Source: Escherichia coli (GTDB lineage: Bacteria; Pseudomonadota; Gammaproteobacteria; Enterobacterales; Enterobacteriaceae). From it: a stretch of 64,000 bases of DNA. The stretch lies in assembly GCF_002854065.1 (NCBI RefSeq), contig NZ_CP024147.1; one strand, given 5' to 3'. This document shows, piece by piece, positions 2,920-64,000 of this stretch. How positions within the stretch are numbered: the first letter of the stretch is position 1; the number at the start of each line of letters is the position of its first letter. The translations under genes were made by a program, and so were the position numbers. The notes beneath the pieces are model-generated. The model searched no databases, was not told the origin of the DNA, and saw only the letters and a program-made list of their open reading frames with translations.

Positions 2920-3359
2920 CCCCGGCCTTCAGGGAACGCCTCGGCGATTTTGACGCCACCAACATCCGTGCGGTTTGTAACGTCGAAGATAAAACAACCA
3001 GGGCAGATAAAATGCCAATGCTAATTAATTACGTTTTTCCAGCAGGGTCCGGTAAATCAGACCACCGATAATGCCGCCGACAATTGGCACCACCCAGAAG
3101 AACCACAGTTGTTCTAATGCCCAGCCGCCCTGGAAGATGGCAACCGCGGTGCTGCGCGCCGGGTTAACAGAAGTGTTAGTCACCGGAATACTGATTAAGT
3201 GAATCAGGGTTAAGGCCAGACCAATAGCGATCGGCGCAAAACCTGCCGGAGCGAATTTGTCGGTTGCGCCGTGGATCACCAACAGGAAACCTGCACTCAA
3301 TACCAGTTCAACTACCAGCGCGGAAAGCATGGAATAACCGCCTGGTGAATGCTCGCCAT

Positions 3360-3368
3360 AACCGTTAG
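3360..3368. repeat. IS1 target-site duplication (left copy, AACCGTTAG)
   Basis: A 9-bp direct repeat AACCGTTAG immediately flanks both IS1 ends (3360..3368 and 4137..4145). Confidence 0.85.
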
Positions 3369-3423
3369 GGTGATGCTGCCAACTTACTGATTTAGTGTAT
3401 GATGGTGTTTTTGAGGTGCTCCA

Positions 3424-3699
3424 GTGGCTTCTGTTTCTATCAGCTGTCCCTCCTGTTCAGCTACTGACGGGGTGGTGCGTAACGGCAAAAGCACTGCCGG
3501 ACATCAGCGCTATCTCTGCTCTCACTGCCGTAAAACATGGCAACTGCAGTTCACTTACACCGCTTCTCAACCCGGTACGCACCAGAAAATCATTGATATG
3601 GCCATGAATGGCGTTGGATGCCGGGCAACCGCCCGCATTATGGGCGTTGGCCTCAACACGATTTTCCGCCATTTAAAAAACTCAGGCCGCAGTCGGTAA
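3424..3699 (+). CDS. insA: IS1 InsA (transposition inhibitor / N-terminal part of InsAB')
   Basis: 91-aa [46 protein letters not shown]... matches canonical IS1 InsA. Confidence 0.95.
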
Positions 3700-4121
3700 C
3701 CTCGCGCATACAGCCGGGCAGTGACGTCATCGTCTGCGCGGAAATGGACGAACAGTGGGGATACGTCGGGGCTAAATCGAGCCAGCGCTGGCTGTTTTAC
3801 GCGTATGACAGGCTCCGGAAGACGGTTGTTGCGCACGTATTCGGTGAACGCACTATGGCGACGCTGGGGCGTCTTATGAGCCTGCTGTCACCCTTTGACG
3901 TGGTGATATGGATGACGGATGGCTGGCCGCTGTATGAATCCCGCCTGAAGGGAAAGCTGCACGTAATCAGCAAGCGATATACGCAGCGAATTGAGCGGCA
4001 TAACCTGAATCTGAGGCAGCACCTGGCACGGCTGGGACGGAAGTCGCTGTCGTTCTCAAAATCGGTGGAGCTGCATGACAAAGTCATCGGGCATTATCTG
4101 AACATAAAACACTATCAATAA
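3618..4121 (+). CDS. insB: IS1 InsB reading frame (expressed as InsAB' transposase by -1 frameshift)
   Basis: 167-aa frame ...[64 protein letters not shown]... matches IS1 InsB; it overlaps the insA 3' end in the -1 frame. Confidence 0.9.
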
Positions 4122-4136
4122 GTTGGAGTCATTACC

Positions 4137-4145
4137 AACCGTTAG
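4137..4145. repeat. IS1 target-site duplication (right copy, AACCGTTAG)
   Basis: Identical 9 bp to 3360..3368. Confidence 0.85.
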
Positions 4146-4922
4146 AAGCAAAACCGCTGGCTGCCGCGTCAAAACCCGTTTTACCACTGGCAATTAAATA
4201 CAGCAGCGCCGCTGCAACAATACCGCCGACAACCTGGGCAATTACGTAGCCAACGACTTCTTTTGCCGGAAAACGTCCGCCAGCCCATAAACCAATAGTG
4301 ACCGCCGGGTTAAAATGACCACCAGAAATATGACCAACAGCGAAGGCCATCGTCAGAACGGTCAAACCGAATGCCAGCGCCACGCCGGCAAAACCAATGC
4401 CTAATTCCGGGAAGCCTGCGGCCAGTACAGCACTACCACAGCCACCAAAAACAAGCCAGAAAGTACCAAAACATTCAGCTGCTAATTTTCTGAACATATC
4501 CACCTCAATTAAAAATTGACCCTGTGAAAAATATGGTCGTTTTATAGGGTCGTCGTAAAAAAGTGACGACGGAAATAATGCGCGGCTATTTTAAAAACGA
4601 AGGCGAGTCATTCACCAGATAAATAAATCCAGTAAATTTGATTTAGGGCAACAGCGGGTTGCCCCATATAGTCATTTGTCTGATTGACAGTGTAGTGCAA
4701 GCAAAAGATTTAATCCTTTAGGCGTAATAAAAAATAATTTATCATGCTAATTATTTGATTTTGTTGTTTTTGCAGACTTATCAGCAAGAGGGAGTATAAC
4801 GCGATTATTCGCTCATTTTTCAGACATTTGCCATGCTTAAATGTGATGTCATCACGTATTAGCAAGGCCTTTCCCGTTATACTGCCAGCGTAAAGGATAA
4901 GTCACATATTTCTGGAGGGGAT

Positions 4923-8800: not shown

Positions 8801-10743
8801 CACCCTTGCTCGAATTAAAGGATATTCGTCGCAGCTATCCTGCCGGTGATGAGCAGGTTGAGGTGCTGAAGGGCATCACCCTCGATATTTATGCCGGTGA
8901 GATGGTAGCGATTGTTGGCGCTTCGGGTTCCGGTAAATCAACCCTGATGAATATTCTCGGCTGTCTGGATAAGGCCACCAGCGGCACCTATCGCGTCGCC
9001 GGTCAGGATGTTGCCACACTGGACGCCGATGCGCTGGCGCAACTACGCCGCGAGCATTTCGGCTTTATTTTCCAGCGTTACCATTTGCTTTCGCATTTAA
9101 CCGCCGAGCAGAACGTTGAAGTACCCGCCGTCTATGCTGGTCTTGAGCGGAAACAGCGGCTGCTTCGCGCCCAGGAGTTGCTGCAACGACTGGGGCTGGA
9201 AGACCGTACAGAGTATTATCCGGCACAGCTTTCGGGTGGTCAGCAACAGCGCGTTAGCATCGCGCGGGCATTGATGAACGGCGGTCAGGTAATTCTTGCC
9301 GATGAACCAACCGGCGCACTGGACAGCCATTCTGGCGAAGAGGTGATGGCGATCCTGCATCAGCTGCGCGATCGCGGACATACGGTGATTATCGTCACCC
9401 ACGATCCGCAGGTCGCTGCTCAGGCCGAGCGGGTGATCGAAATTCGCGACGGCGAAATTGTGCGCAATCCTCCCGCCATTGAAAAAGTGAATGTTGCTGG
9501 CGGGACGGAACCTGTTGTCAACACGGTGTCTGGCTGGCGGCAGTTTGTCAGCGGTTTTAACGAGGCGCTGACGATGGCATGGCGGGCGCTGGCAGCGAAT
9601 AAAATGCGTACTTTACTGACCATGCTGGGGATTATAATCGGTATTGCGTCGGTGGTTTCCATTGTCGTGGTGGGCGACGCCGCCAAACAAATGGTGTTGG
9701 CGGATATTCGTTCTATTGGTACGAATACTATTGACGTCTACCCCGGGAAAGATTTTGGCGATGGCGATCCGCAATATCAGCAGGCGCTGAAGTACGACGA
9801 CTTAATCGCCATCCAAAAACAACCGTGGGTCGCCTCAGCCACACCTGCCGTCTCGCAAAACCTGCGCCTGCGTTATAACAATATTGATGTTGCTGCCAGT
9901 GCCAATGGCGTGAGCGGCGATTATTTTAATGTCTATGGCATGACCTTCAGTGAAGGAAACACCTTTAATCAGGAACAGCTGAACGGTCGTGCGCAGGTCG
10001 TGGTTCTCGACAGTAATACTCGCCGCCAGCTTTTCCCCCATAAAGCAGATGTGGTTGGCGAGGTGATTCTGGTCGGCAATATGCCCGCCAGAGTCATTGG
10101 TGTGGCGGAAGAAAAACAGTCGATGTTTGGTAGCAGTAAAGTGCTGCGTGTCTGGCTACCTTACAGCACGATGTCCGGGCGAGTTATGGGCCAGTCGTGG
10201 CTGAACTCCATTACTGTCAGGGTGAAAGAAGGATTTGACAGCGCCGAGGCGGAACAGCAACTCACGCGTTTACTTTCACTGCGCCACGGTAAGAAGGATT
10301 TCTTTACCTGGAACATGGACGGCGTCTTGAAAACCGTTGAAAAGACCACACGTACTTTACAACTGTTTCTGACGCTGGTGGCGGTGATTTCGCTGGTAGT
10401 GGGCGGTATTGGTGTAATGAATATTATGCTGGTGTCAGTGACCGAGCGGACGCGGGAAATTGGCATTCGCATGGCTGTAGGTGCGCGAGCAAGCGATGTT
10501 TTGCAACAGTTCCTGATCGAAGCCGTACTGGTTTGCCTGGTTGGTGGCGCGTTGGGAATAACACTGTCACTGTTAATTGCTTTCACCTTGCAGCTTTTCT
10601 TACCCGGCTGGGAGATTGGTTTTTCACCGTTGGCACTGCTGCTGGCGTTTCTCTGCTCGACGGCCACCGGGATTTTATTTGGCTGGTTACCCGCACGAAA
10701 TGCGGCACGACTGGATCCAGTAGATGCTCTGGCACGAGAGTAA
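8797..10743 (+). CDS. macB: macrolide export ABC transporter ATPase/permease MacB
   Basis: 648 aa; N-terminal ABC ATPase ([35 protein letters not shown]) followed by an FtsX-like permease domain. Confidence 0.92.
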
Positions 10744-10754
10744 TTTTTGAGATA

Positions 10755-10785
10755 AAAATGCCAGCCGATCGGGCTGGCATTTTGC
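10755..10785. terminator. bidirectional rho-independent terminator between macB and cspD
   Basis: ATGCCAGCC-GATCG-GGCTGGCAT hairpin flanked by A-run and T-run on both sides. Confidence 0.6.
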
Positions 10786-10815
10786 CTTTAGGATGTACAC
10801 AATGAGACAGAAGAG

Positions 10816-11040
10816 CTATGCGACTGCCGCTTCTACTTCGACGGGCACAATAACACTGGCGTGATTGCCTTTTGGCCCCTGGTGGACATCAAACTGAACG
10901 GATTGTCCAGCTTTTAGCGTTCTGTAACCATCCATCTGAATGGTGGAATAATGAGCGAAAATATCTTCGCCGCCGCCTTCAGGGCAGATGAAACCAAACC
11001 CTTTGGCATTGTTGAACCACTTAACAGTACCCTTTTCCAT
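10816..11040 (-). CDS. cspD: cold-shock-domain protein CspD (stationary-phase replication inhibitor)
   Basis: MEKGTVKWFNNAKGFGFICPEGGGEDIFAHYSTIQMDGYRTLKAGQSVQFDVHQGPKGNHASVIVPVE (74 aa from the ATG at 11040). Confidence 0.92.
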   Translation of the reverse strand: MEKGTVKWFNNAKGFGFICPEGGGEDIFAHYSTIQMDGYRTLKAGQSVQFDVHQGPKGNHASVIVPVEVEAAVA

Positions 11041-11362
11041 GCTTCGACATCCTTCGCAAATCTTATACAAGTAAGATGGAATAAACCGGGGTCAGAGAGG
11101 GGGCTGTTCAAAACCTCGCCAACTCTAGAAATACAATTTAGAGAATTAGGGCGAGCCGTCAAGCATTTGACAGGGGACAAGGGGCAGGTATGAATCAAAA
11201 ATTTGAAGCAGTTAACGCTATTGACAGGAATGTGACAGATGTCGCTGATGCCAACGATAGATGATAGTTATCTATCATGTGGAGTAGATTGGTCAGGCAA
11301 ATAAGCTCTTGTCAGCGGCAGGGCGTTCTGCCGATAACCGTAACCGAAGATGATAACTGACA

Positions 11363-11683
11363 ATGGGTAAAACGAACGACTGGCTGGACTTTGATCAACT
11401 GGCGGAAGAAAAAGTTCGCGACGCGCTAAAACCGCCATCTATGTATAAAGTGATATTAGTCAATGATGATTACACTCCGATGGAGTTTGTTATTGACGTG
11501 TTACAAAAATTCTTTTCTTATGATGTAGAACGTGCAACGCAATTGATGCTCGCTGTTCACTACCAGGGGAAGGCCATTTGCGGAGTCTTTACCGCCGAGG
11601 TTGCAGAAACCAAAGTGGCGATGGTGAACAAGTACGCGAGGGAGAATGAGCATCCATTGCTGTGTACGCTAGAAAAAGCCTGA
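11363..11683 (+). CDS. clpS: ClpA adaptor ClpS
   Basis: 106 aa, [47 protein letters not shown]... Confidence 0.95.
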
Positions 11684-11713
11684 ATGCAGGCATAAAAATT
11701 GGGGGAGGTGCCT

Positions 11714-13990
11714 ATGCTCAATCAAGAACTGGAACTCAGTTTAAATATGGCTTTCGCCAGAGCGCGCGAGCACCGTCATGAGTTTATGACCGTCGAGCAC
11801 TTGTTACTGGCGCTGCTCAGTAACCCATCTGCCCGGGAGGCGCTGGAAGCGTGTTCTGTGGATTTGGTTGCGCTCCGTCAGGAACTGGAAGCCTTTATTG
11901 AACAAACCACACCCGTTCTGCCTGCCAGTGAAGAGGAGCGCGACACACAGCCGACGCTGAGTTTTCAGCGTGTACTGCAACGTGCGGTCTTCCATGTCCA
12001 GTCCTCCGGTCGCAATGAGGTTACCGGTGCAAACGTTCTGGTCGCTATCTTTAGCGAACAGGAGTCGCAGGCGGCATATCTGTTGCGTAAACATGAAGTC
12101 AGCCGTCTCGATGTGGTGAACTTTATCTCTCATGGCACGCGTAAAGACGAGCCGACACAGTCTTCTGATCCTGGCAGCCAGCCAAACAGCGAAGAACAAG
12201 CTGGTGGGGAGGAACGTATGGAGAATTTCACGACGAACCTGAATCAGCTTGCGCGCGTGGGCGGAATCGACCCACTGATTGGTCGTGAGAAGGAGCTTGA
12301 GCGTGCTATTCAGGTTCTCTGCCGTCGCCGTAAAAACAACCCGCTGCTGGTGGGGGAATCTGGTGTTGGTAAAACTGCGATTGCGGAAGGTCTTGCCTGG
12401 CGAATTGTTCAGGGCGATGTGCCGGAAGTGATGGCTGACTGTACAATTTACTCACTCGATATCGGTTCTCTGTTAGCGGGCACAAAATATCGCGGCGACT
12501 TTGAAAAACGTTTTAAAGCGTTGCTCAAGCAGCTGGAGCAGGACACTAACAGCATCCTGTTTATTGATGAGATCCACACCATTATCGGTGCGGGGGCAGC
12601 GTCTGGTGGTCAGGTCGATGCGGCTAACCTAATCAAACCGTTGCTCTCCAGCGGTAAAATTCGTGTAATTGGTTCGACAACCTATCAGGAGTTCAGCAAC
12701 ATTTTCGAGAAAGACCGTGCTCTGGCGCGTCGCTTCCAGAAAATTGATATTACTGAACCGTCGATCGAAGAAACTGTTCAAATCATCAATGGCCTGAAAC
12801 CGAAGTATGAAGCACACCACGACGTGCGTTATACCGCAAAAGCGGTGCGTGCGGCGGTAGAGCTGGCGGTGAAATACATTAACGATCGTCATCTGCCGGA
12901 TAAAGCCATTGATGTTATCGACGAAGCGGGCGCTCGCGCACGCCTGATGCCGGTAAGCAAACGCAAGAAAACCGTTAATGTGGCGGATATTGAGTCCGTG
13001 GTGGCCCGTATTGCACGCATTCCAGAGAAGAGTGTTTCTCAGAGTGATCGTGATACCCTGAAAAACCTCGGCGATCGCCTGAAAATGCTGGTCTTCGGTC
13101 AGGATAAAGCCATTGAGGCGCTGACTGAAGCCATTAAGATGGCGCGTGCAGGTTTAGGTCACGAACATAAACCGGTCGGTTCGTTCCTGTTTGCCGGTCC
13201 TACCGGGGTCGGGAAAACAGAGGTGACGGTACAGCTTTCGAAAGCTTTGGGCATTGAGCTTCTGCGCTTTGATATGTCCGAGTATATGGAACGCCATACC
13301 GTCAGCCGTCTGATTGGTGCGCCTCCGGGATACGTTGGTTTTGATCAGGGCGGTTTGCTGACTGATGCGGTCATCAAGCATCCACATGCGGTGCTGCTGC
13401 TGGACGAAATCGAGAAAGCGCATCCGGACGTGTTCAATATTCTGTTGCAGGTGATGGACAACGGTACGCTGACCGATAACAACGGACGCAAAGCGGACTT
13501 CCGTAACGTGGTGCTGGTGATGACCACTAACGCCGGGGTACGGGAAACTGAGCGCAAATCCATTGGTCTTATCCACCAGGATAACAGCACCGATGCGATG
13601 GAAGAGATCAAGAAGATCTTTACACCGGAATTCCGTAACCGTCTCGACAACATTATCTGGTTCGATCATCTGTCAACTGACGTGATCCATCAGGTGGTGG
13701 ATAAATTCATCGTCGAGTTGCAGGTTCAGCTGGATCAGAAAGGTGTTTCTCTGGAAGTGAGCCAGGAAGCGCGTAACTGGCTGGCCGAGAAAGGTTACGA
13801 CCGGGCAATGGGCGCACGTCCGATGGCGCGTGTCATCCAGGACAACCTGAAAAAACCGCTTGCCAACGAACTGCTGTTTGGTTCGCTGGTGGACGGCGGT
13901 CAGGTCACCGTCGCGCTGGATAAAGAGAAAAATGAGCTGACTTACGGATTCCAGAGTGCACAAAAGCACAAGGCGGAAGCAGCGCATTAA
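11714..13990 (+). CDS. clpA: ATP-dependent Clp protease ATPase subunit ClpA
   Basis: 758 aa from [19 protein letters not shown]; two AAA+ modules (GESGVGKT and GPTGVGKT Walker A motifs). Confidence 0.95.
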
Positions 13991-14013
13991 TCTGATTGTC
14001 AGGTAGGTTGGTG

Positions 14014-14052
14014 AAGTCCGTAATCTCGAAAGAGGTTACGGACTTTTTATTT
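14014..14052 (+). terminator. clpA rho-independent terminator
   Basis: AGTCCGTAATCTC-GAAA-GAGGTTACGGACT hairpin followed by TTTTTATTTAT. Confidence 0.7.
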
Positions 14053-14202
14053 ATGGGGTGGAGGAGGTTCAGACCCTTTTTTTGATGATGATGGTAACTT
14101 GTTGATAATTAGTGCTGCTGGAAGGTAAGGATAAAAAAGGGTGCTGCGGGAGAATGGGATGGTTTTGCTTTATTAACAACGGGCTAAACGTGTAGTATTT
14201 GA

Positions 14203-14290
14203 ATTCACTGCCGTACAGGCAGCTTAGAAAGTCAACCGAAAGAAAAACTCGATTTTTATACCGTTCACTGCTGTACAGGTAGATAAAATG
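14203..14290 (+). CRISPR. orphan type I-F CRISPR remnant (2 repeats, 1 spacer), no adjacent cas genes
   Basis: Repeat 1 ATTCACTGCCGTACAGGCAGCTTAGAAA (14203..14230), 32-bp spacer GTCAACCGAAAGAAAAACTCGATTTTTATACC (14231..14262), degenerate repeat 2 GTTCACTGCTGTACAGGTAGATAAAATG (14263..14290); repeat 1 matches the E. coli I-F repeat consensus as recalled. Confidence 0.8.
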
Positions 14291-14333
14291 CGAAAAAAAA
14301 GCTCGCACTTTCGTACGAGCTCTTCTTTAAATA

Positions 14334-14421
14334 TGGCGGTGAGGGGGGGATTCGAACCCCCGATACGTTGCCGTATACACACTTTCCAGGCGTGCTCCTT
14401 CAGCCACTCGGACACCTCACC
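14334..14421 (-). tRNA. serW: tRNA-Ser (GGA anticodon)
   Basis: Minus-strand sequence GGTGAGGTGTCCGAGTGGCTGAAGGAGCACGCCTGGAAAGTGTGTATACGGCAACGTATCGGGGGTTCGAATCCCCCCCTCACCGCCA: 88 nt, long variable arm, encoded CCA. Confidence 0.92.
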
Positions 14422-14603
14422 AAATTGTTTTGCTGCCAAACCTCATGGGTGGCAACGGGGCGCTACTATAGGGAGTTGGAGTAAAACGGTCAAGAAGAAT
14501 TTTAATGATAATTATTGTTTGCTCATACTGTAAACAACTTGTGCAGTATATCTACATCGAGACAAGTTATGGACTTATACTTCCAAAGTACTTCATACAT
14601 ATC

Positions 14604-14634
14604 ACAAAATAAAAAGGCCGGTTAAACCGACCTT
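14604..14634 (-). terminator. infA rho-independent terminator
   Basis: Minus-strand hairpin AGGTCGGTTTAACCGGCCT followed by TTTTTATTTTGT. Confidence 0.6.
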
Positions 14635-14674
14635 TTACTCGTTCTTTCTCTTCGCCCATCAGGCGGTAAAACAA

Positions 14675-14896
<222 letters not shown>

Positions 14897-15177
14897 ATCC
14901 TCTGGGGTATCACTACCGTAATTTGAACCGGCAAGATAATGCCGAAGTTCTGTAAATAAGTAAAGATTTGCGCGCTAAATCGCAACAAACAGGTTCGGCA
15001 CATTACTCCGAAAACACACGGCTAAGCCGCACCAAAAGCGCAACGTATAAGGGAGCGGTGAGATAAACGATGGGCGTTACCTGACGCGAAAAATTCCTTA
15101 TCGGCAGCGGGGTAATGAGCGTAACCAACTCTGCGACCGCAATTATAACACTCTGGGGAGAAATGTGCCGAAAACAT

Positions 15178-15882
15178 TCATTCTTGTGGTGAAAACAAGC
15201 ATCGTGGTACCCAGAAATTATTCGGCAATCGTCCGAGGCGCATTTGATTGAGATAATTAAGGTAATCCCGGCGGGGAATTTCGCAGGCACCAAGCGATGC
15301 TGTGTGATCGTTAAGGACCTGGCAGTCGATAAGCTTACCGCCATGACCGATAAATTCCTCACAGAATACCAGAAGCGCCGTTTTAGACGCATTTTCCATC
15401 CGGCTGAACATGGACTCGCCACAAAATAGCGTTCCCTGGGCCACGCCGTACATACCGCCGACAAGCTCATCTTCACGCCAGACTTCAATGGAGTGGGCAT
15501 GACCGAGTTCGTGAATGCGATGGTAGGCTTCGACCACGCCACGCGTGATCCAGGTTCCTTCTTCGCGATCGCTGGCACAGCCTTCAATGACCTGACCAAA
15601 AGCGTAATTCATCGTGACACGATAGGGCGAGCGTTTATGAAATCGCTTCATACTACGGCTGATATGCAGTGATTCTGGCCATAGCACCGCGCGAGGATCG
15701 GGCGACCACCAGAGGATGGGGTCGCCTGGAGAAAACCACGGAAAAATACCACGCTGGTAAGCCATTAACAGGCGCGCAGGGCTAAGATCGCCCCCAAGTG
15801 CCAGCAGGCCGTTAGGCTCACGTAATGCGCCTTCCGGGGAAGGGAAGGCTATTGAATGGCGAGAAAGCTGAACCAGGCGCAT
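15178..15882 (-). CDS. aat: leucyl/phenylalanyl-tRNA--protein transferase
   Basis: 234 aa, [50 protein letters not shown]... Confidence 0.92.
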
Positions 15883-15923
15883 GACCGCAAAACTCCACGC
15901 AAGTCGGATCGTTCAATAATAGC

Positions 15924-17645
15924 TTACAAACCCTGCTTGAACTGGTAATAACGCCCCTGTCTGGCAAGCAGTTCTGCGTGAGTACCTTGCTCAATAATTT
16001 GCCCGTTGTCCATCACTATTATTTGCTGGAAACGAGAGAGTCCGCGAAGTCGATGGGTGACCATTAACACCGTTTTCTCATGCATCATTTCTGCAAGCAA
16101 TTCAAGGATCTGACTTTCGGTTGTGGCATCTAAGCCTTCTGTAGGTTCATCCAGCAACACCAGTGGCGCATCATGTAACAGCGCACGGGCGATAGCCAGG
16201 CGGCGCAGTTCACCACCGGAGAGCTGGCGTCCGCCTTCACCTAACCAACTGTTGAGACCTGCATCCTCGAGCAGCTTCTCCAGACCAACGCGACGCAAGA
16301 TCTCCGACAGAGTCTCATCACTACTGCCAGGCGAGGCGAGTAACAGATTATCACGCAGCGTGGCGCTAAACAGATGCACTCGCTGAGGAACAACGCTGAT
16401 GGTCTGTCGTAGAGCCGCTTCATTCAGGCTTGCTATGGGGCTATCGTTAAGCAAAATCTCGCCCTGTTGCGGGTCCCATGCGCGGGTCAGCAGTTGTAAC
16501 AGTGTTGATTTGCCGCATCCGGTTCGCCCGAGAATCGCTATATGTTCCCCGGCGTTTACCTGAAGAGAAATCCCTTTAAGTGCCTGTTGAGATTGCTCCG
16601 GATAAGTGAACTGAACATCCCGTAACGTCAGCGAAACGCGATCGGCAACACGAGTTTGGGTATCAGGGAAGGTGACCTCCGGTTTTTGATCCGTTAAATC
16701 AGTGATCCGAACGGCAGAGGCAATGACTTGCCCCAGATGCTGAAATGCACCCGTTACTGGTGCCAGTGCTTCAAACGCGGCTAACGCGCAAAAGACAAAC
16801 AGGGCAATTAACGCGCCGGGTTGAGCATTGCCGCCAACGCCGCCAGACGCCATCCACAGCATCAGGATCACCGCTAACGCGCCAATGAGCAGCATTATCG
16901 CTTGCGACAATGCGGTCAGTTCAGATTGACGGCGTTGCGCTTCCAGCCATTGAATTTCTGTATTCTCTAGTTGCGTGCGATAACGATCGCTGGCACCAAA
17001 AATGGTCAGCTCAGCTTGCCCTTGCAGCCAGGCCGTCAGTTGTTGGCGATACTGTCCGCGAAGATGAGTCAGATTTTGCCCGGTGCTTTTTCCCGCACGA
17101 TAAAACAGCGGTGGCATCAGGAAAAGCGTCAGTAACATAATGCCGCCCAGCGTAAAGGCGAGGGTGAAATCAAGGAAACTTAACCCGATTGTCACCACCA
17201 TAATCACCACAAAAGCGCCCACCAGCGGCGAGATAACGCGCAGGTAAAGATGATCGAGCGTATCAACATCCGCCACCACGCGGTTGAGCAATTCGCCCTG
17301 ACGATAGCGCGCCAGTCCGGCAGGGGAGAGGGGCAACAATTTGCTGAAGGTGTAAATGCGCAGATGCTGCAACACGCGGAAAGTCGCGTCGTGACTTACC
17401 AGACGTTCAAAATAACGCCCGGCAGTACGGGTGATTGCGGCACCACGCACGCCCGCAGCGGGTAGCATATAGTTGAAGCTGTACAGTCCGGCAACCCCCG
17501 CAACCGCTGAGGCCGAGAGGAACCAGCCGGAAAGTGTCAACAGACCGATACTGGCGAGCAGCGTCGCAATTGCCAGCACAATACCAAGACTTAACATCCA
17601 TTTATGACGTTTATACAGTGCCAGATAGGGTAGCAAAGCGCGCAT
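15924..17645 (-). CDS. cydC: cysteine/glutathione ABC exporter subunit CydC
   Basis: 573 aa; N-terminal six-TM domain and C-terminal ABC ATPase (GRTGCGKST, LSGGELRRLAIARALL, LLDEPTEGLD). Confidence 0.92.
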   Translation of the reverse strand: MRALLPYLALYKRHKWMLSLGIVLAIATLLASIGLLTLSGWFLSASAVAGVAGLYSFNYMLPAAGVRGAAITRTAGRYFERLVSHDATFRVLQHLRIYTFSKLLPLSPAGLARYRQGELLNRVVADVDTLDHLYLRVISPLVGAFVVIMVVTIGLSFLDFTLAFTLGGIMLLTLFLMPPLFYRAGKSTGQNLTHLRGQYRQQLTAWLQGQAELTIFGASDRYRTQLENTEIQWLEAQRRQSELTALSQAIMLLIGALAVILMLWMASGGVGGNAQPGALIALFVFCALAAFEALAPVTGAFQHLGQVIASAVRITDLTDQKPEVTFPDTQTRVADRVSLTLRDVQFTYPEQSQQALKGISLQVNAGEHIAILGRTGCGKSTLLQLLTRAWDPQQGEILLNDSPIASLNEAALRQTISVVPQRVHLFSATLRDNLLLASPGSSDETLSEILRRVGLEKLLEDAGLNSWLGEGGRQLSGGELRRLAIARALLHDAPLVLLDEPTEGLDATTESQILELLAEMMHEKTVLMVTHRLRGLSRFQQIIVMDNGQIIEQGTHAELLARQGRYYQFKQGL

Positions 17646-19412
17646 TTAAATCTCCTCCTGACGATGGGCCAGTAATGTGGCGAATGGGCCACCAGCCACA
17701 CTTAATTCCGCGTAACGTCCTTGCTCAATAATCCGGCCATCCTGCATAACCCAAATGACATCCCAGTCAGCAAGATCTTCTAACTGGTGGGTGACCATTA
17801 ACGTTGTCTGGCGCAGAGAGGCGGCATTCAGCGCCTCCATTACGCGCTGTTCACTGTGAGCATCAAGGCTGGCAGCGGGTTCATCCAACAGTAATAGCGA
17901 ACAGGGATTTAGTAACGCACGGGCCACCGCCACGCGCTGCGCCTGCCCCACGGAAAGGCGGGCAGCCTGGTCGCCAACAGGCGTATCAACGCCTTGTGGC
18001 AGGAGCGGTAGAAACTCGCTGACCCAGGCGTTATCCAGCGCTGCTTGTAATTCTTGTTCGCTGGCATCAGGTCGCGCCAGTAGTACGTTATCCCGTAATG
18101 CTGCTGCCGGTAATTGTGGGTTTTGCCCAACCCAGGAGAGATGTTTACGCCATGATTCTGGTGATAAATCGCGTAATTCTATCCCGTTGATTCGTAATGA
18201 TCCCTGATATGAGAGAAAACCAGAAAGCGCGTTCAGCAGTGAGCTTTTACCTGAACCGCTGCGACCAACCAACACTGCACGTTGGCCTGCTGGCAAAGTA
18301 AAGTTCAGCGGTCCGGCCAGCGTTTTACCTTCCGGCGACGTGATAAACAGATCCTCGGCCTCAATGGTCACCGGATCGGTCGATGCTAATTCCGCCTCAC
18401 CGCGCTGCGGATGGGCGAGCGGGGTTTCCATAAACGTTTTCAGACTGTCAGCTGCACCAACAGCCTGGGCTTTAGCATGATAAAACGTACCGAGATCGCG
18501 CAATGGCTGGAAAAACTCTGGCGCAAGGATCAGGGCCAGAAAACCCGCAGCCAGCGTCACACCGGTATCGTAGTGACCAAAATCCAGCTCGCCGAGATAG
18601 GAAAAACCAAAGTAGACCGCCACCAGAGCAATTGACAGCGAGGTAAAAAATTCGAGAATGCCGGAGGATAAAAACGCCAGCCGTAGCACTTCCATTGTCC
18701 GTTGGCGGAAATCTTCCGAAGCAGAACGAATACTTTCAATTTCAGCTTCACCACGACCAAAAATACGCAATGTTTCCATGCCGCGCAGGCGATCGAGGAA
18801 ATGCCCACTTAAGCGAGCAAGAGCGAGAAAGTTACGTCGGTTAGCATCGGCAGCCCCCATCCCAACCAGCGCCATAAACAACGGAATTAACGGTGCAGTG
18901 CCCAGCAGAATGAGCGCCGCAGCCCAGTTAGAGGGGAAGATCGCCACCACAATCAGCAACGGCACCGACACTGCCAGCGCCATTTGCGGCAGGTAGCGTG
19001 CATAGTAATCATGCATATCGTCAATTTGCTCGAGTACCAGCGTCGCCCAGCTCCCCGCAGGTTTACCCTGAATCCACGCTGGCCCTGCTTGTTGCAGACG
19101 GTCGAGAACCTGACGGCGGATGGCAAAGCGGATATGCTGCCCGGCGTGATAACCCACCCGTTCGCGTAACCAGACCACCCATGCGCGCAGTACAAAGGTC
19201 AGAACCAGTAACGTAAAGGGAAGCAGCAGGGCTTCACGGGGAATATTCTCCATAATCATATGTTGCAGAATTCGCGCCATGAACCATGCCTGGGCAATGA
19301 TCAATATGCCGCTCACAAAGCCCAGCAGACGAGAAATATTCAGCCAACGTTGGGAGATGACGCTTTGCTGTTTTAACCAGCGGGTTAACTCTTTTTGACG
19401 AGATTTATTCAT
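17646..19412 (-). CDS. cydD: cysteine/glutathione ABC exporter subunit CydD
   Basis: 588 aa; ABC exporter ([35 protein letters not shown]); lies directly upstream of cydC with no gap. Confidence 0.92.
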   Translation of the reverse strand: MNKSRQKELTRWLKQQSVISQRWLNISRLLGFVSGILIIAQAWFMARILQHMIMENIPREALLLPFTLLVLTFVLRAWVVWLRERVGYHAGQHIRFAIRRQVLDRLQQAGPAWIQGKPAGSWATLVLEQIDDMHDYYARYLPQMALAVSVPLLIVVAIFPSNWAAALILLGTAPLIPLFMALVGMGAADANRRNFLALARLSGHFLDRLRGMETLRIFGRGEAEIESIRSASEDFRQRTMEVLRLAFLSSGILEFFTSLSIALVAVYFGFSYLGELDFGHYDTGVTLAAGFLALILAPEFFQPLRDLGTFYHAKAQAVGAADSLKTFMETPLAHPQRGEAELASTDPVTIEAEDLFITSPEGKTLAGPLNFTLPAGQRAVLVGRSGSGKSSLLNALSGFLSYQGSLRINGIELRDLSPESWRKHLSWVGQNPQLPAAALRDNVLLARPDASEQELQAALDNAWVSEFLPLLPQGVDTPVGDQAARLSVGQAQRVAVARALLNPCSLLLLDEPAASLDAHSEQRVMEALNAASLRQTTLMVTHQLEDLADWDVIWVMQDGRIIEQGRYAELSVAGGPFATLLAHRQEEI

Positions 19413-19468
19413 TGCACGCTTAGCAGGTGAGTTATCAGAATTATTTGCAGAGCAATGTTACAACGGGG

Positions 19469-19507
19469 AAAAAATAAAGGCGACCCATAGTCGCATGGTG
19501 TCGCCTT
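19469..19507 (-). terminator. trxB rho-independent terminator
   Basis: Inverted repeat AAGGCGACCCAT...ATGGTGTCGCCTT, followed on the minus strand by TTTATTTTTTCCCC. Confidence 0.6.
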
Positions 19508-19534
19508 CTTTACTTTTGTTACTGATTTGTAAAA

Positions 19535-20617
<1,083 letters not shown>

Positions 20618-51258: not shown

Positions 51259-51412
51259 TTTCTCTAATCTGGAACTGGAAGCTGCCTCGCAGAGTTTTGA
51301 GCAGTTTTCACCCTCTCGTTAAATTCTTCTGAATGTGCCTCGGGGAACGCAAAATTCCCACCAGACAACCGCTCAACAAAGTTGCACACTTTCCATAAAC
51401 AGGGAGGGGTGC

Positions 51413-53663
51413 ATGAAAATAACGACAGTCGGCGTATGCATAATTTGCGGAATTTTTCCGTTGCTGATTTTGCCCCAATTGCCTGGGACATTAACCCTTG
51501 CGTCTCTGACCGTCTTCGCCTGCGTACTGGTATTTATCCCTTTTAAAACCGTCCGTTATATCGCGCTGACGTTGCTGTTTTTCGTTTGGGGCATATTAGC
51601 AGCAAAGCAAATTTTGTGGGCAGGAGAAACCTTAACTGGCGCGACGCAGGATGCAATTGTTGAGATCACTGCTACTGACGGTATGACCACTCATTACGGT
51701 CAAATTACTCATCTACAAGGTCGACGTATATTCCCTGCGCCAGGCCTCGTGCTGTATGGCGAATATCTTCCGCAAGCGGTTTGTGCTGGACAACAATGGT
51801 CAATGAAACTCAAAGTTCGTGCCGTTCATGGTCAACTTAATGATGGCGGCTTTGATAGCCAGCGTTATGCCATTGCCCAGCATCAGCCGCTCACCGGCCG
51901 TTTTCTGCGGGCAAGTGTCATTGAACCGAATTGTAGCCTGCGTGCACAGTATCTGGCGTCACTACAAACAACGCTGCAACCCTATATGTCTTGGTTTAGG
52001 TATGGGGGAACGGTTATCCGTCCCTAAAGAAATCAAAAATATCATGCGTGATACTGGAACGGCGCATTTAATGGCGATATCGGGATTGCACATCGCTTTT
52101 GCGGCGTTGCTGGCTGCCGGACTCATTCGCAGTGGACAAATTTTTCTGCCTGGGCGCTGGATCCACTGGCAAATGCCATTAATTGGCGGAATCTGCTGTG
52201 CTGCTTTTTATGCCTGGCTGACGGGAATGCAACCTCCTGCATTGCGTACCGTTGTGGCGCTTGCTACGTGGGGAATGCTTAAGTTAAGTGGGCGACAGTG
52301 GAGTGGCTGGGATGTATGGATATGTTGTCTGGCGGCAATTTTGCTGATGGATCCTGTTGCCATTCTCTCGCAAAGTTTATGGCTCTCTGCCGCTGCGGTC
52401 GCGGCATTGATATTTTGGTATCAGTGGTTTCCCTGTCCTGAGTGGCAACTGCCGCCGGTATTGCGTGCAGTTGTTTCCCTCATTCATTTGCAACTGGGAA
52501 TCACACTTCTGCTTATGCCCGTGCAAATCGTCATATTTCATGGCATTAGTCTGACCTCGTTTATTGCAAATCTATTAGCAATTCCCTTGGTGACATTTAT
52601 CACGGTTCCGTTGATCCTCGCCGCGATGGTTGTGCATTTAAGCGGGCCGTTAATCCTGGAGCAAGGGTTATGGTTTCTTGCCGACCGGTCTTTGGCTTTA
52701 CTTTTCTGGGGGTTAAAGAGTTTGCCAGAAGGGTGGATCAACATTGCTGAACGTTGGCAATGGCTATTATTTTCCCCATGGTTCTTACTGGTGGTATGGC
52801 GATTAAACGCCTGGCGAACGTTGCCAGCAATGTGTGTGGCTGTAGGCTTGCTGATGTGCTGGCCGCTGTGGCAAAAACCTCGACCTGACGAGTGGCAAGT
52901 GTACATGCTTGATGTCGGGCAAGGGCTGGCAATGGTGATAGCCAGAAACGGCAAAGCGATTCTCTATGACACGGGACTGGCCTGGCCCGAAGGGGATAGT
53001 GGGCAACAACTGATTATCCCCTGGCTCCACTGGCATAATCTTGAACCGGAAGGCGTTATTCTGAGCCATGAACATCTGGATCACCGGGGAGGGCTGGATT
53101 CAATATTGCACACATGGCCGATGTTATGGATCAGAAGTCCGTTAAACTGGGAACATCATCAGCCCTGTGTGCGTGGCGAAGCGTGGCAATGGCAAGGATT
53201 GCGTTTCAGTGCGCACTGGCCTTTACAAGGTAGCAACGATAAAGGAAATAACCATTCCTGTGTGGTTAAGGTTGATGACGGGACGAATAGCATTCTTCTA
53301 ACCGGTGATATTGAAGCCCCAGCTGAACAAAAGATGCTAAGCCGTTACTGGCAGCAAGTGCAGGCAACATTGCTTCAGGTACCTCACCATGGCAGTAATA
53401 CCTCATCATCGTTGCCATTAATTCAGCGAGTGAATGGAAAAGTGGCATTCGCATCGGCATCGCGCTATAACGCATGGCGACTGCCCTCTAACAAAGTTAA
53501 GCATCGCTATCAACAGCAAGGTTATACGTGGCTTGATACTCCTCATCAGGGGCAAGTAACGGTCGATTTTTCAGCGCAAGGCTGGCGGATTAGCAGCCTC
53601 AGGGAGCAAATTTTACCTCGTTGGTATCATCAGTGGTTTGGCGTGCCAGTGGATAACAGGTAG
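51413..53663 (+). pseudogene. ycaI: ComEC/Rec2-family competence protein homolog, apparently frameshifted near 51985
   Basis: Two overlapping frames: 51413..52027 (MKITTVGVCIICGIF..., RBS AGGGAGGGG) and 51819..53663 (...LGLGMGERLSVPKEIKNIMRDTGTAHLMAISGLHIAF... with C-terminal metallo-beta-lactamase HEHLDHRGG). Total span is 2251 nt, not a multiple of 3. Confidence 0.6.
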
Positions 53664-63405: not shown

Positions 63406-64000
63406 TGATTGAACGCGGTAAATTTCGCTCACTGACGCTGATTAACTGGAACGGCTTTTTTGCCCGAACTTTTGACCTTGACGAGCTGGTCACGACGCTT
63501 TCTGGCGGTAACGGGGCGGGTAAATCCACCACCATGGCGGCGTTCGTTACGGCGCTGATCCCCGACCTGACCCTGCTGCATTTCCGTAACACTACGGAAG
63601 CCGGGGCCACCAGCGGTTCGCGCGATAAAGGTCTGCACGGTAAGCTGAAAGCGGGTGTCTGTTATTCGATGCTCGACACCATTAACTCGCGCCACCAGCG
63701 CGTGGTGGTCGGTGTGCGTCTGCAACAGGTTGCCGGACGCGATCGTAAAGTGGATATCAAACCATTTGCCATTCAGGGACTGCCGATGTCGGTGCAGCCG
63801 ACACAGCTGGTGACCGAAACTCTGAACGAACGCCAGGCGCGCGTGCTGCCGCTTAACGAGCTGAAAGACAAGCTCGAGGCAATGGAAGGCGTGCAGTTTA
63901 AACAGTTCAACTCCATTACCGATTACCACTCGCTGATGTTCGATCTGGGCATCATCGCGCGTCGTCTGCGCTCCGCATCTGACCGTAGCAAATTCTATCG
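63405..64000 (+). CDS. mukB: condensin SMC-like ATPase MukB, N-terminal part (truncated by window edge)
   Basis: [67 protein letters not shown] (Walker A); start overlaps the mukE stop. Confidence 0.95.

Follow-up and report, generated by a model that had tools for sequence, protein, structure and literature searches.

The window, which is the whole 64,000-nucleotide (64-kb) stretch of Escherichia coli DNA analysed here, almost certainly holds the serW locus in its empty (attB) state, in the compact arrangement that is common for this locus. The serW terminator directly adjoins the tRNA gene, and this organization equals the outer flanks of the occupied O157:H7 strain FRIK944 joined at the recombination core, so that the window corresponds to the exact empty attB. 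A sequence-only reading of the same DNA had also concluded that the site is unoccupied; it is partly supported, its conclusion being right and its interpretation being partly mis-argued.

The serW locus and its chromosomal setting

The window consists of core E. coli chromosome extending from hcp to mukE, with the gene order hcp, lysO, aqpZ::IS1, ybjD, ybjX, macAB, cspD, clpS, clpA, tRNA-Ser, infA, aat, cydCD, trxB, lrp and ftsK, continuing to mukF/mukE. At 99.98% identity, it is collinear over its full length with positions 1767811-1831810 of strain CUWW06. Exact identity with CUWW06 is rejected, as the two are distinguished by 10 SNPs and by one IS1 copy that is present in CUWW06 at the window-equivalent position ~36131 and missing from the window. 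A 3-kb query around serW finds a match in 5,425 of the 5,426 complete E. coli genomes, with CUWW06 100% identical, and in most of these genomes the region is contiguous at 97-100% identity.

That the gene is serW follows from the order clpA - tRNA-Ser - infA - aat - cydC; the twin gene, serX, is found in the different context ycdU - serX - ghrA. Over 136 nt, serW and its terminator are 100% identical to K-12, in which serX is trailed by the same terminator hairpin. The locus comprises the following features:

11714-13990: clpA, with the stop codon ending at 13990 (annotation of the near-identical CUWW06 record)
14013-14046, plus strand: intrinsic terminator-like hairpin of clpA (terminator scan; inverted repeat)
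14047-14202, plus strand: AT-rich leader of a type I-F CRISPR array (collinear with the leader of the clpA-proximal array in the I-F carrier O18)
14203-14290, plus strand: orphan I-F CRISPR mini-array (Rfam CRISPR-DR4, 47 bits)
14293-14328, minus strand: intrinsic terminator of serW with a 16-pair stem and then a T8 run, placed 5 nt beyond the 3' end of the tRNA (terminator scan)
14334-14421, minus strand: serW, an intact tRNA-Ser(GGA) (ARAGORN, one tRNA in the window; Rfam tRNA, 53.8 bits at 14337-14421)
14334-14347, minus strand: 14-bp att core, TGGCGGTGAGGGGG in plus-strand letters, forming the 3'-terminal 14 nt of serW, encoded CCA included; single copy
14465-14493, minus strand: putative serW promoter, sigma-70-like, TTGACC, 17 nt, TATAGT (consensus scan, 10/12 matches)
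14612-14636, minus strand: intrinsic terminator-like hairpin of infA (terminator scan)
14675-14893, minus strand: infA, translation initiation factor IF-1 (72-aa ORF; same coordinates in CUWW06, WP_001040187.1)

The tRNA is separated from clpA by 343 bp (13991-14333) and from infA by 253 bp (14422-14674). The terminators of clpA and serW, with the CRISPR leader and array between them, account for the whole 343-bp interval. The 253-bp spacer contains the infA terminator at 14612-14636 and the sigma-70-like site at 14465-14493, which precedes the 5' end of the mature tRNA by ~44 nt and is likely the serW promoter; this promoter and the terminators of the interval are consensus matches. From left to right, the locus is organized as clpA, its terminator, the I-F leader with a one-spacer orphan array, the serW terminator, serW on the minus strand, the likely serW promoter, the infA terminator and infA.

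Orientation determines which side of the tRNA is informative. The encoded CCA of serW appears as TGG on the plus strand at 14334-14336. The minus-strand position of serW turns its 3' end (14334), the point of integration, toward clpA and the CRISPR remnant and away from infA. The sequence-only reading gave the distance from the tRNA to infA as about 250 bp, in agreement with the measured 253 bp, and took the shortness of this distance as evidence for an empty site. That argument addresses the wrong side, since the integration end of serW points to clpA; the 253 bp toward infA form the upstream side of the tRNA and are therefore uninformative on 3'-end integration. The proper evidence for emptiness is the terminator-tRNA junction, which is identical to what results when the two outer flanks of an occupied strain are brought together at the 14-bp core.

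Several further observations concern the window at a distance from serW. The sole mobile gene across the window-equivalent CUWW06 annotation is the IS1 at 3368-4136. This element breaks aqpZ, and the CUWW06 record shows aquaporin fragments at 3025-3366 and 4135-4497. The second IS1 of CUWW06 sits in an amino-acid permease gene at the ycaM position, the window copy of which is intact (ORF 35602-37224). From the permease gene to pflA there are only ~210 bp (window ~37225-37433), in which CUWW06 annotates a 111-bp LysR-family fragment; ycaN and ycaK, which are placed between these two genes on the K-12 map, are apparently deleted in the window. The ComEC-family gene at the ycaI position (51335-53663) is present as two overlapping ORFs, 51335-52027 and 51819-53663, and also as two CDS in CUWW06, suggesting a frameshift. 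In O18 (L009 1-1729) and OZ040274 (L011 1-6137), terminase, portal and capsid genes lie directly upstream of clpS, at the place taken by cspD and macB in the window, so that some strains would seem to have a prophage insertion site near cspD/clpS.

Empty and occupied states of serW

In the occupied state, represented by O157:H7 FRIK944, the match to the window stops just beyond the tRNA 3' end. An island of ~74 kb with a P4-family integrase is located between the serW terminator and the tRNA, resulting in the order clpA, CRISPR remnant, terminator, TGGCGGTGAGGGGG, integrase, ~74-kb island, DUF4942 gene and full serW. At the left junction, the CRISPR remnant and the serW terminator are followed by TGGCGGTGAGGGGG and the island; at the right junction, the island is followed by TGGCGGTGAGGGGGGGATTCGAACC... 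(full tRNA). The serW terminator remains joined to the 14-nt tRNA fragment at the island's far end. The tyrosine integrase, with Arm-DNA-bind_3, Phage_int_M and Phage_integrase domains, adjoins the clpA end, and the tRNA side of the island carries a CP4-like module (DUF932, antirestriction, YeeU/CbtA, DUF4942). The same kind of island end is found at serW in GON1437 and SW071611.

The 14-bp TGGCGGTGAGGGGG is the published direct repeat of OI-43/OI-48 and of the Shigella SRL-PAI (PMC3064760). These elements possess P4-family integrases, and their site-specific excision restores intact serW and serX (PMC3064760). Excision between the 14-bp repeats takes place at a detectable frequency in cultures and leaves serW/serX identical to the unoccupied state, and an 'intact serW' as the unoccupied state is described in the same literature (PMC3064760). 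The window shares the tRNA-Ser(GGA) and the core TGGCGGTGAGGGGG with the empty serW/serX attB of OI-43, OI-48 (the tellurite-resistance and adherence island, SpLE1) and SRL-PAI. Its outer flanks are those of the occupied FRIK944, whereas the island features, namely the integrase, the ter/ure/iha cargo and the CP4-like end with cbtA/yeeU, are missing. Comparison with occupied strains, which the sequence-only reading had proposed as a check, bears out its conclusion: the FRIK944 flanks joined at the core reproduce the arrangement of the window. The intact tRNA and core, the continuous flanks and the clpA-serW-infA context expected of an empty attB for SRL-PAI/OI-43-type islands are all present.

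The islands that use this site are of the SRL-PAI / OI-43 / OI-48 family and encode a P4-family tyrosine integrase. Recombination takes place inside the 3'-terminal 14 nt of the tRNA (TGGCGGTGAGGGGG) and puts the island on the clpA side, where it separates the tRNA from its terminator. One end of the island bears the full tRNA, and the integrase end bears the 14-nt fragment together with the original terminator.

Traces of such an element are not found in the window. A 30-mer of the tRNA 3' end (≤3 mismatches) has no second copy in the 64 kb, and a 16-mer (≤2 mismatches) matches only the tRNA. Searching the window with the whole tRNA by blastn-short otherwise returns only chance matches of ≤15 nt, and the 14-mer att core (≤2 mismatches) has one other match in the window, at 63503, with 2 mismatches. 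With the FRIK944 island integrase as the tblastn query, the best match in the window has an E value of 0.055 and falls inside clpA, and CUWW06, at 99.98% identity, has no recombinase annotated over the whole 64 kb; the search for integrases covered this one query protein and this annotation. No block of foreign composition is found near the tRNA, where the two 400-bp bins that span the short intergenic regions have 44% GC against 46-54% in the coding flanks; the GC dips near serW are limited to short AT-richer intergenic regions. The distal repeat, integrase and atypical block of a tRNA-integrated island or prophage, occupied or degraded, are all lacking in the window, and no result speaks against an empty site. 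The sequence-only reading had also rested its claim of an unoccupied serW on the absence of a duplicated tRNA 3' end and of an integrase fragment. Both points hold: the 30-, 16- and 14-mer probes and blastn-short agree in finding no duplicate across the 64 kb, the tblastn search and the CUWW06 annotation are both negative, and the direct-repeat search that it called for returns the tRNA itself and chance matches only.

The meaning of a duplicated 3' end at this locus is complicated by RtT-like units. Each unit is 179 bp long; it opens with 19 nt copied from the 3' end of the tRNA and closes with a terminator copy. Arrays of one to three units in tandem occur downstream of serW and serX in many E. 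coli, among them O145 RM11626 and E118 at serW and K-12, with three units, at serX. The unit loci seen in these other strains are L007 1172-1723, L002 11511-11645 and L008 4536-5076. They belong with the tyrT rtT type ('RtT sRNA' in PGAP), with the serW terminator and the tRNA 3' end as their building blocks. The window has zero units and no second terminator or 3'-end copy, and Rfam RtT at the gathering score has no match in window positions 10000-20000. Since RtT-like units copy the tRNA 3' end without an island, a duplicated 3' end at serW/serX is no proof of an island. The duplicated tRNA 3' segment that the sequence-only reading named as the sign of a degraded island is thus unsafe at serW.

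Across 5,426 complete E. coli genomes, the compact state, with the clpA and infA flanks ≤1.4 kb apart, accounts for 4,857 (89.5%), as counted with a synthetic query of the unique clpA-side and infA-side flanks only. An OI-43-type left junction with the serW-specific CRISPR remnant is present in 254 (4.7%), I-F csy3 is present in 241 (4.4%), and separated flanks outside the named classes are left in ~73 (~1.3%); the three named classes may overlap, and the ~73 are a remainder. The compact layout is contiguous also in K-12-derived and many other strains. Two other ways of counting were set aside. A 136-nt probe of terminator and tRNA for unoccupied sites (5,320/5,426) was discarded, as serX shares both the terminator and the tRNA. 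The 3-kb query, which gives 4,423 genomes at ≥80% coverage, undercounts compact loci: in island-free strains such as E118, the match is broken up by RtT-like repeats. Among the genomes with separated flanks, OZ040274 (L011 10123-16755) has a ~6.4-kb insertion between serW and infA containing Mor-family, HicB and IS5 genes. The infA (upstream) side of serW is variable in the species, with a second array in I-F carriers and this insertion in OZ040274.

The orphan type I-F array beside serW

The sequence-only reading also placed a CRISPR remnant on the far side of the tRNA, and this is confirmed by a CRISPR-DR4 repeat at 14203-14230 (1 mismatch to the consensus) and a degenerate terminal repeat at 14263-14290, which enclose a 32-nt spacer (14231-14262). 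The mini-array ends 43 nt short of the tRNA 3' end. The csy3 genes of O18 and UTI89 match its spacer at all but 1 position and that of MS1665 at all but 3, and each protospacer has 5'-CC beside it. FRIK944 and O145 have a different orphan spacer at the same place, matching cas1f, and the FRIK944 cas1f protospacer also adjoins CC. The window contains no cas genes according to the CUWW06 annotation, so that I-F repeats without cas genes, a csy3-matching spacer and a CC PAM, the hallmarks of an orphan anti-cas array, are found together.

Orphan I-F arrays with anti-cas spacers are known (Almendros et al. 2016, as cited in PMC5972030), and the citing paper has them as allegedly left over from an ancient, complete I-F system. 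With the published orphan anti-cas array, the window shares the repeat, the 32-nt spacer, the degenerate repeat, the kept leader, the csy3 match and the CC PAM. By its sequence features, the mini-array is a predicted anti-cas orphan array of the published kind.

Among I-F carriers, O18, UTI89 and MS1665 have their cas operon on the 3' side of serW, with ~110 bp between its end and the tRNA 3' terminus, and another CRISPR array between serW and infA. In O18, this infA-side array (L009 14471-14859) has its own leader. Compared with the window (14334-14421), the serW allele in all three I-F carriers examined (L009 14041-14128, L013 4178-4265 and L014 4180-4267) exhibits a compensatory swap of a T-stem pair, from G...C to C...G. 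The swap alters position 12 of the 14-bp att core, giving TGGCGGTGAGGCGG (GGGGG versus GGCGG core). The three carriers represent two csy3 lineages.

An orphan anti-cas array 43 nt from the tRNA end means that the neighbourhood of serW has a history of accessory DNA, to which the I-F loci of the carriers also attest. The statement in the sequence-only reading that the site bounds where accessory DNA is not is therefore too strong. It holds insofar as serW is unoccupied now; it does not extend further, given the array 43 nt away, the I-F loci, the 6.4-kb insertion on the infA side in one genome and the reported precision of excision.

Alternative histories of the site

An old integration at serW that has since decayed, leaving a scar of a partial tRNA repeat, an integrase pseudogene or cargo, is extremely improbable. 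The only non-core sequence at the tRNA 3' side that could be assigned to such a scar is the CRISPR mini-array, and support is otherwise absent: the 64 kb holds no second 3'-end copy, the best integrase match (E = 0.055) lies within clpA, the 343-bp clpA-serW interval is fully accounted for, and K-12-derived strains, like many others, have this layout uninterrupted. A site vacated by the precise excision of an ancestral OI-43/SRL-type island is a less remote prospect, though still an unlikely one. Excision between the 14-bp repeats restores the unoccupied sequence and is seen in cultures (PMC3064760), and ~4.7% of complete genomes have this type of island at serW; such an event is traceless by nature and without positive evidence here, and most E. 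coli lineages are empty. As published excision is precise, the empty state cannot separate a site that was never occupied from one that was occupied and then excised, and a site never occupied is the more economical reading.

The clpA-serW-infA interval could also be the scar of a complete type I-F locus, composed of an array, a cas operon, serW and a second array, that has been reduced to the orphan array. The evidence on this history is evenly poised. In its favour are the cas operon, ~110 bp away from serW, and the infA-side array of O18, UTI89 and MS1665, the leader and repeat that the window has in common with such loci, the csy3 match of the window spacer with its CC PAM, and the view of orphan arrays in PMC5972030 as alleged remnants of a complete I-F system. 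Against this, the 253-bp serW-infA spacer contains no I-F repeat even with 8 mismatches allowed and is no longer or shorter in those examined strains that lack I-F, and the I-F carriers bear a different serW allele. Owing to this allele difference, the two states look like alternative alleles swapped by recombination, not like the outcome of a recent deletion. A reduced I-F locus is compatible with the empty attB, which remains the preferred explanation of the window.

A further proposal, which we regard as a long shot, is that islands and I-F systems exclude each other through serW. The swapped core TGGCGGTGAGGCGG would be a poor target for the SRL/OI-43 integrase, and the cas-less strains would combine a perfect attB with an anti-cas spacer blocking re-entry of I-F. 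If true, a defence system and an island family would be incompatible in both directions, and the empty serW of the window would represent one side of this.

Everything found here is already described, and the result is of little importance, its lessons being mainly methodological. For a tRNA gene on the minus strand, it is the low-coordinate side that should be inspected for islands, and an empty attB does not rule out past occupancy. In conclusion, serW is marked as an intact, available integration site, and the window takes its place among the ~90% of E. coli genomes in which clpA, serW and infA are compactly arranged.
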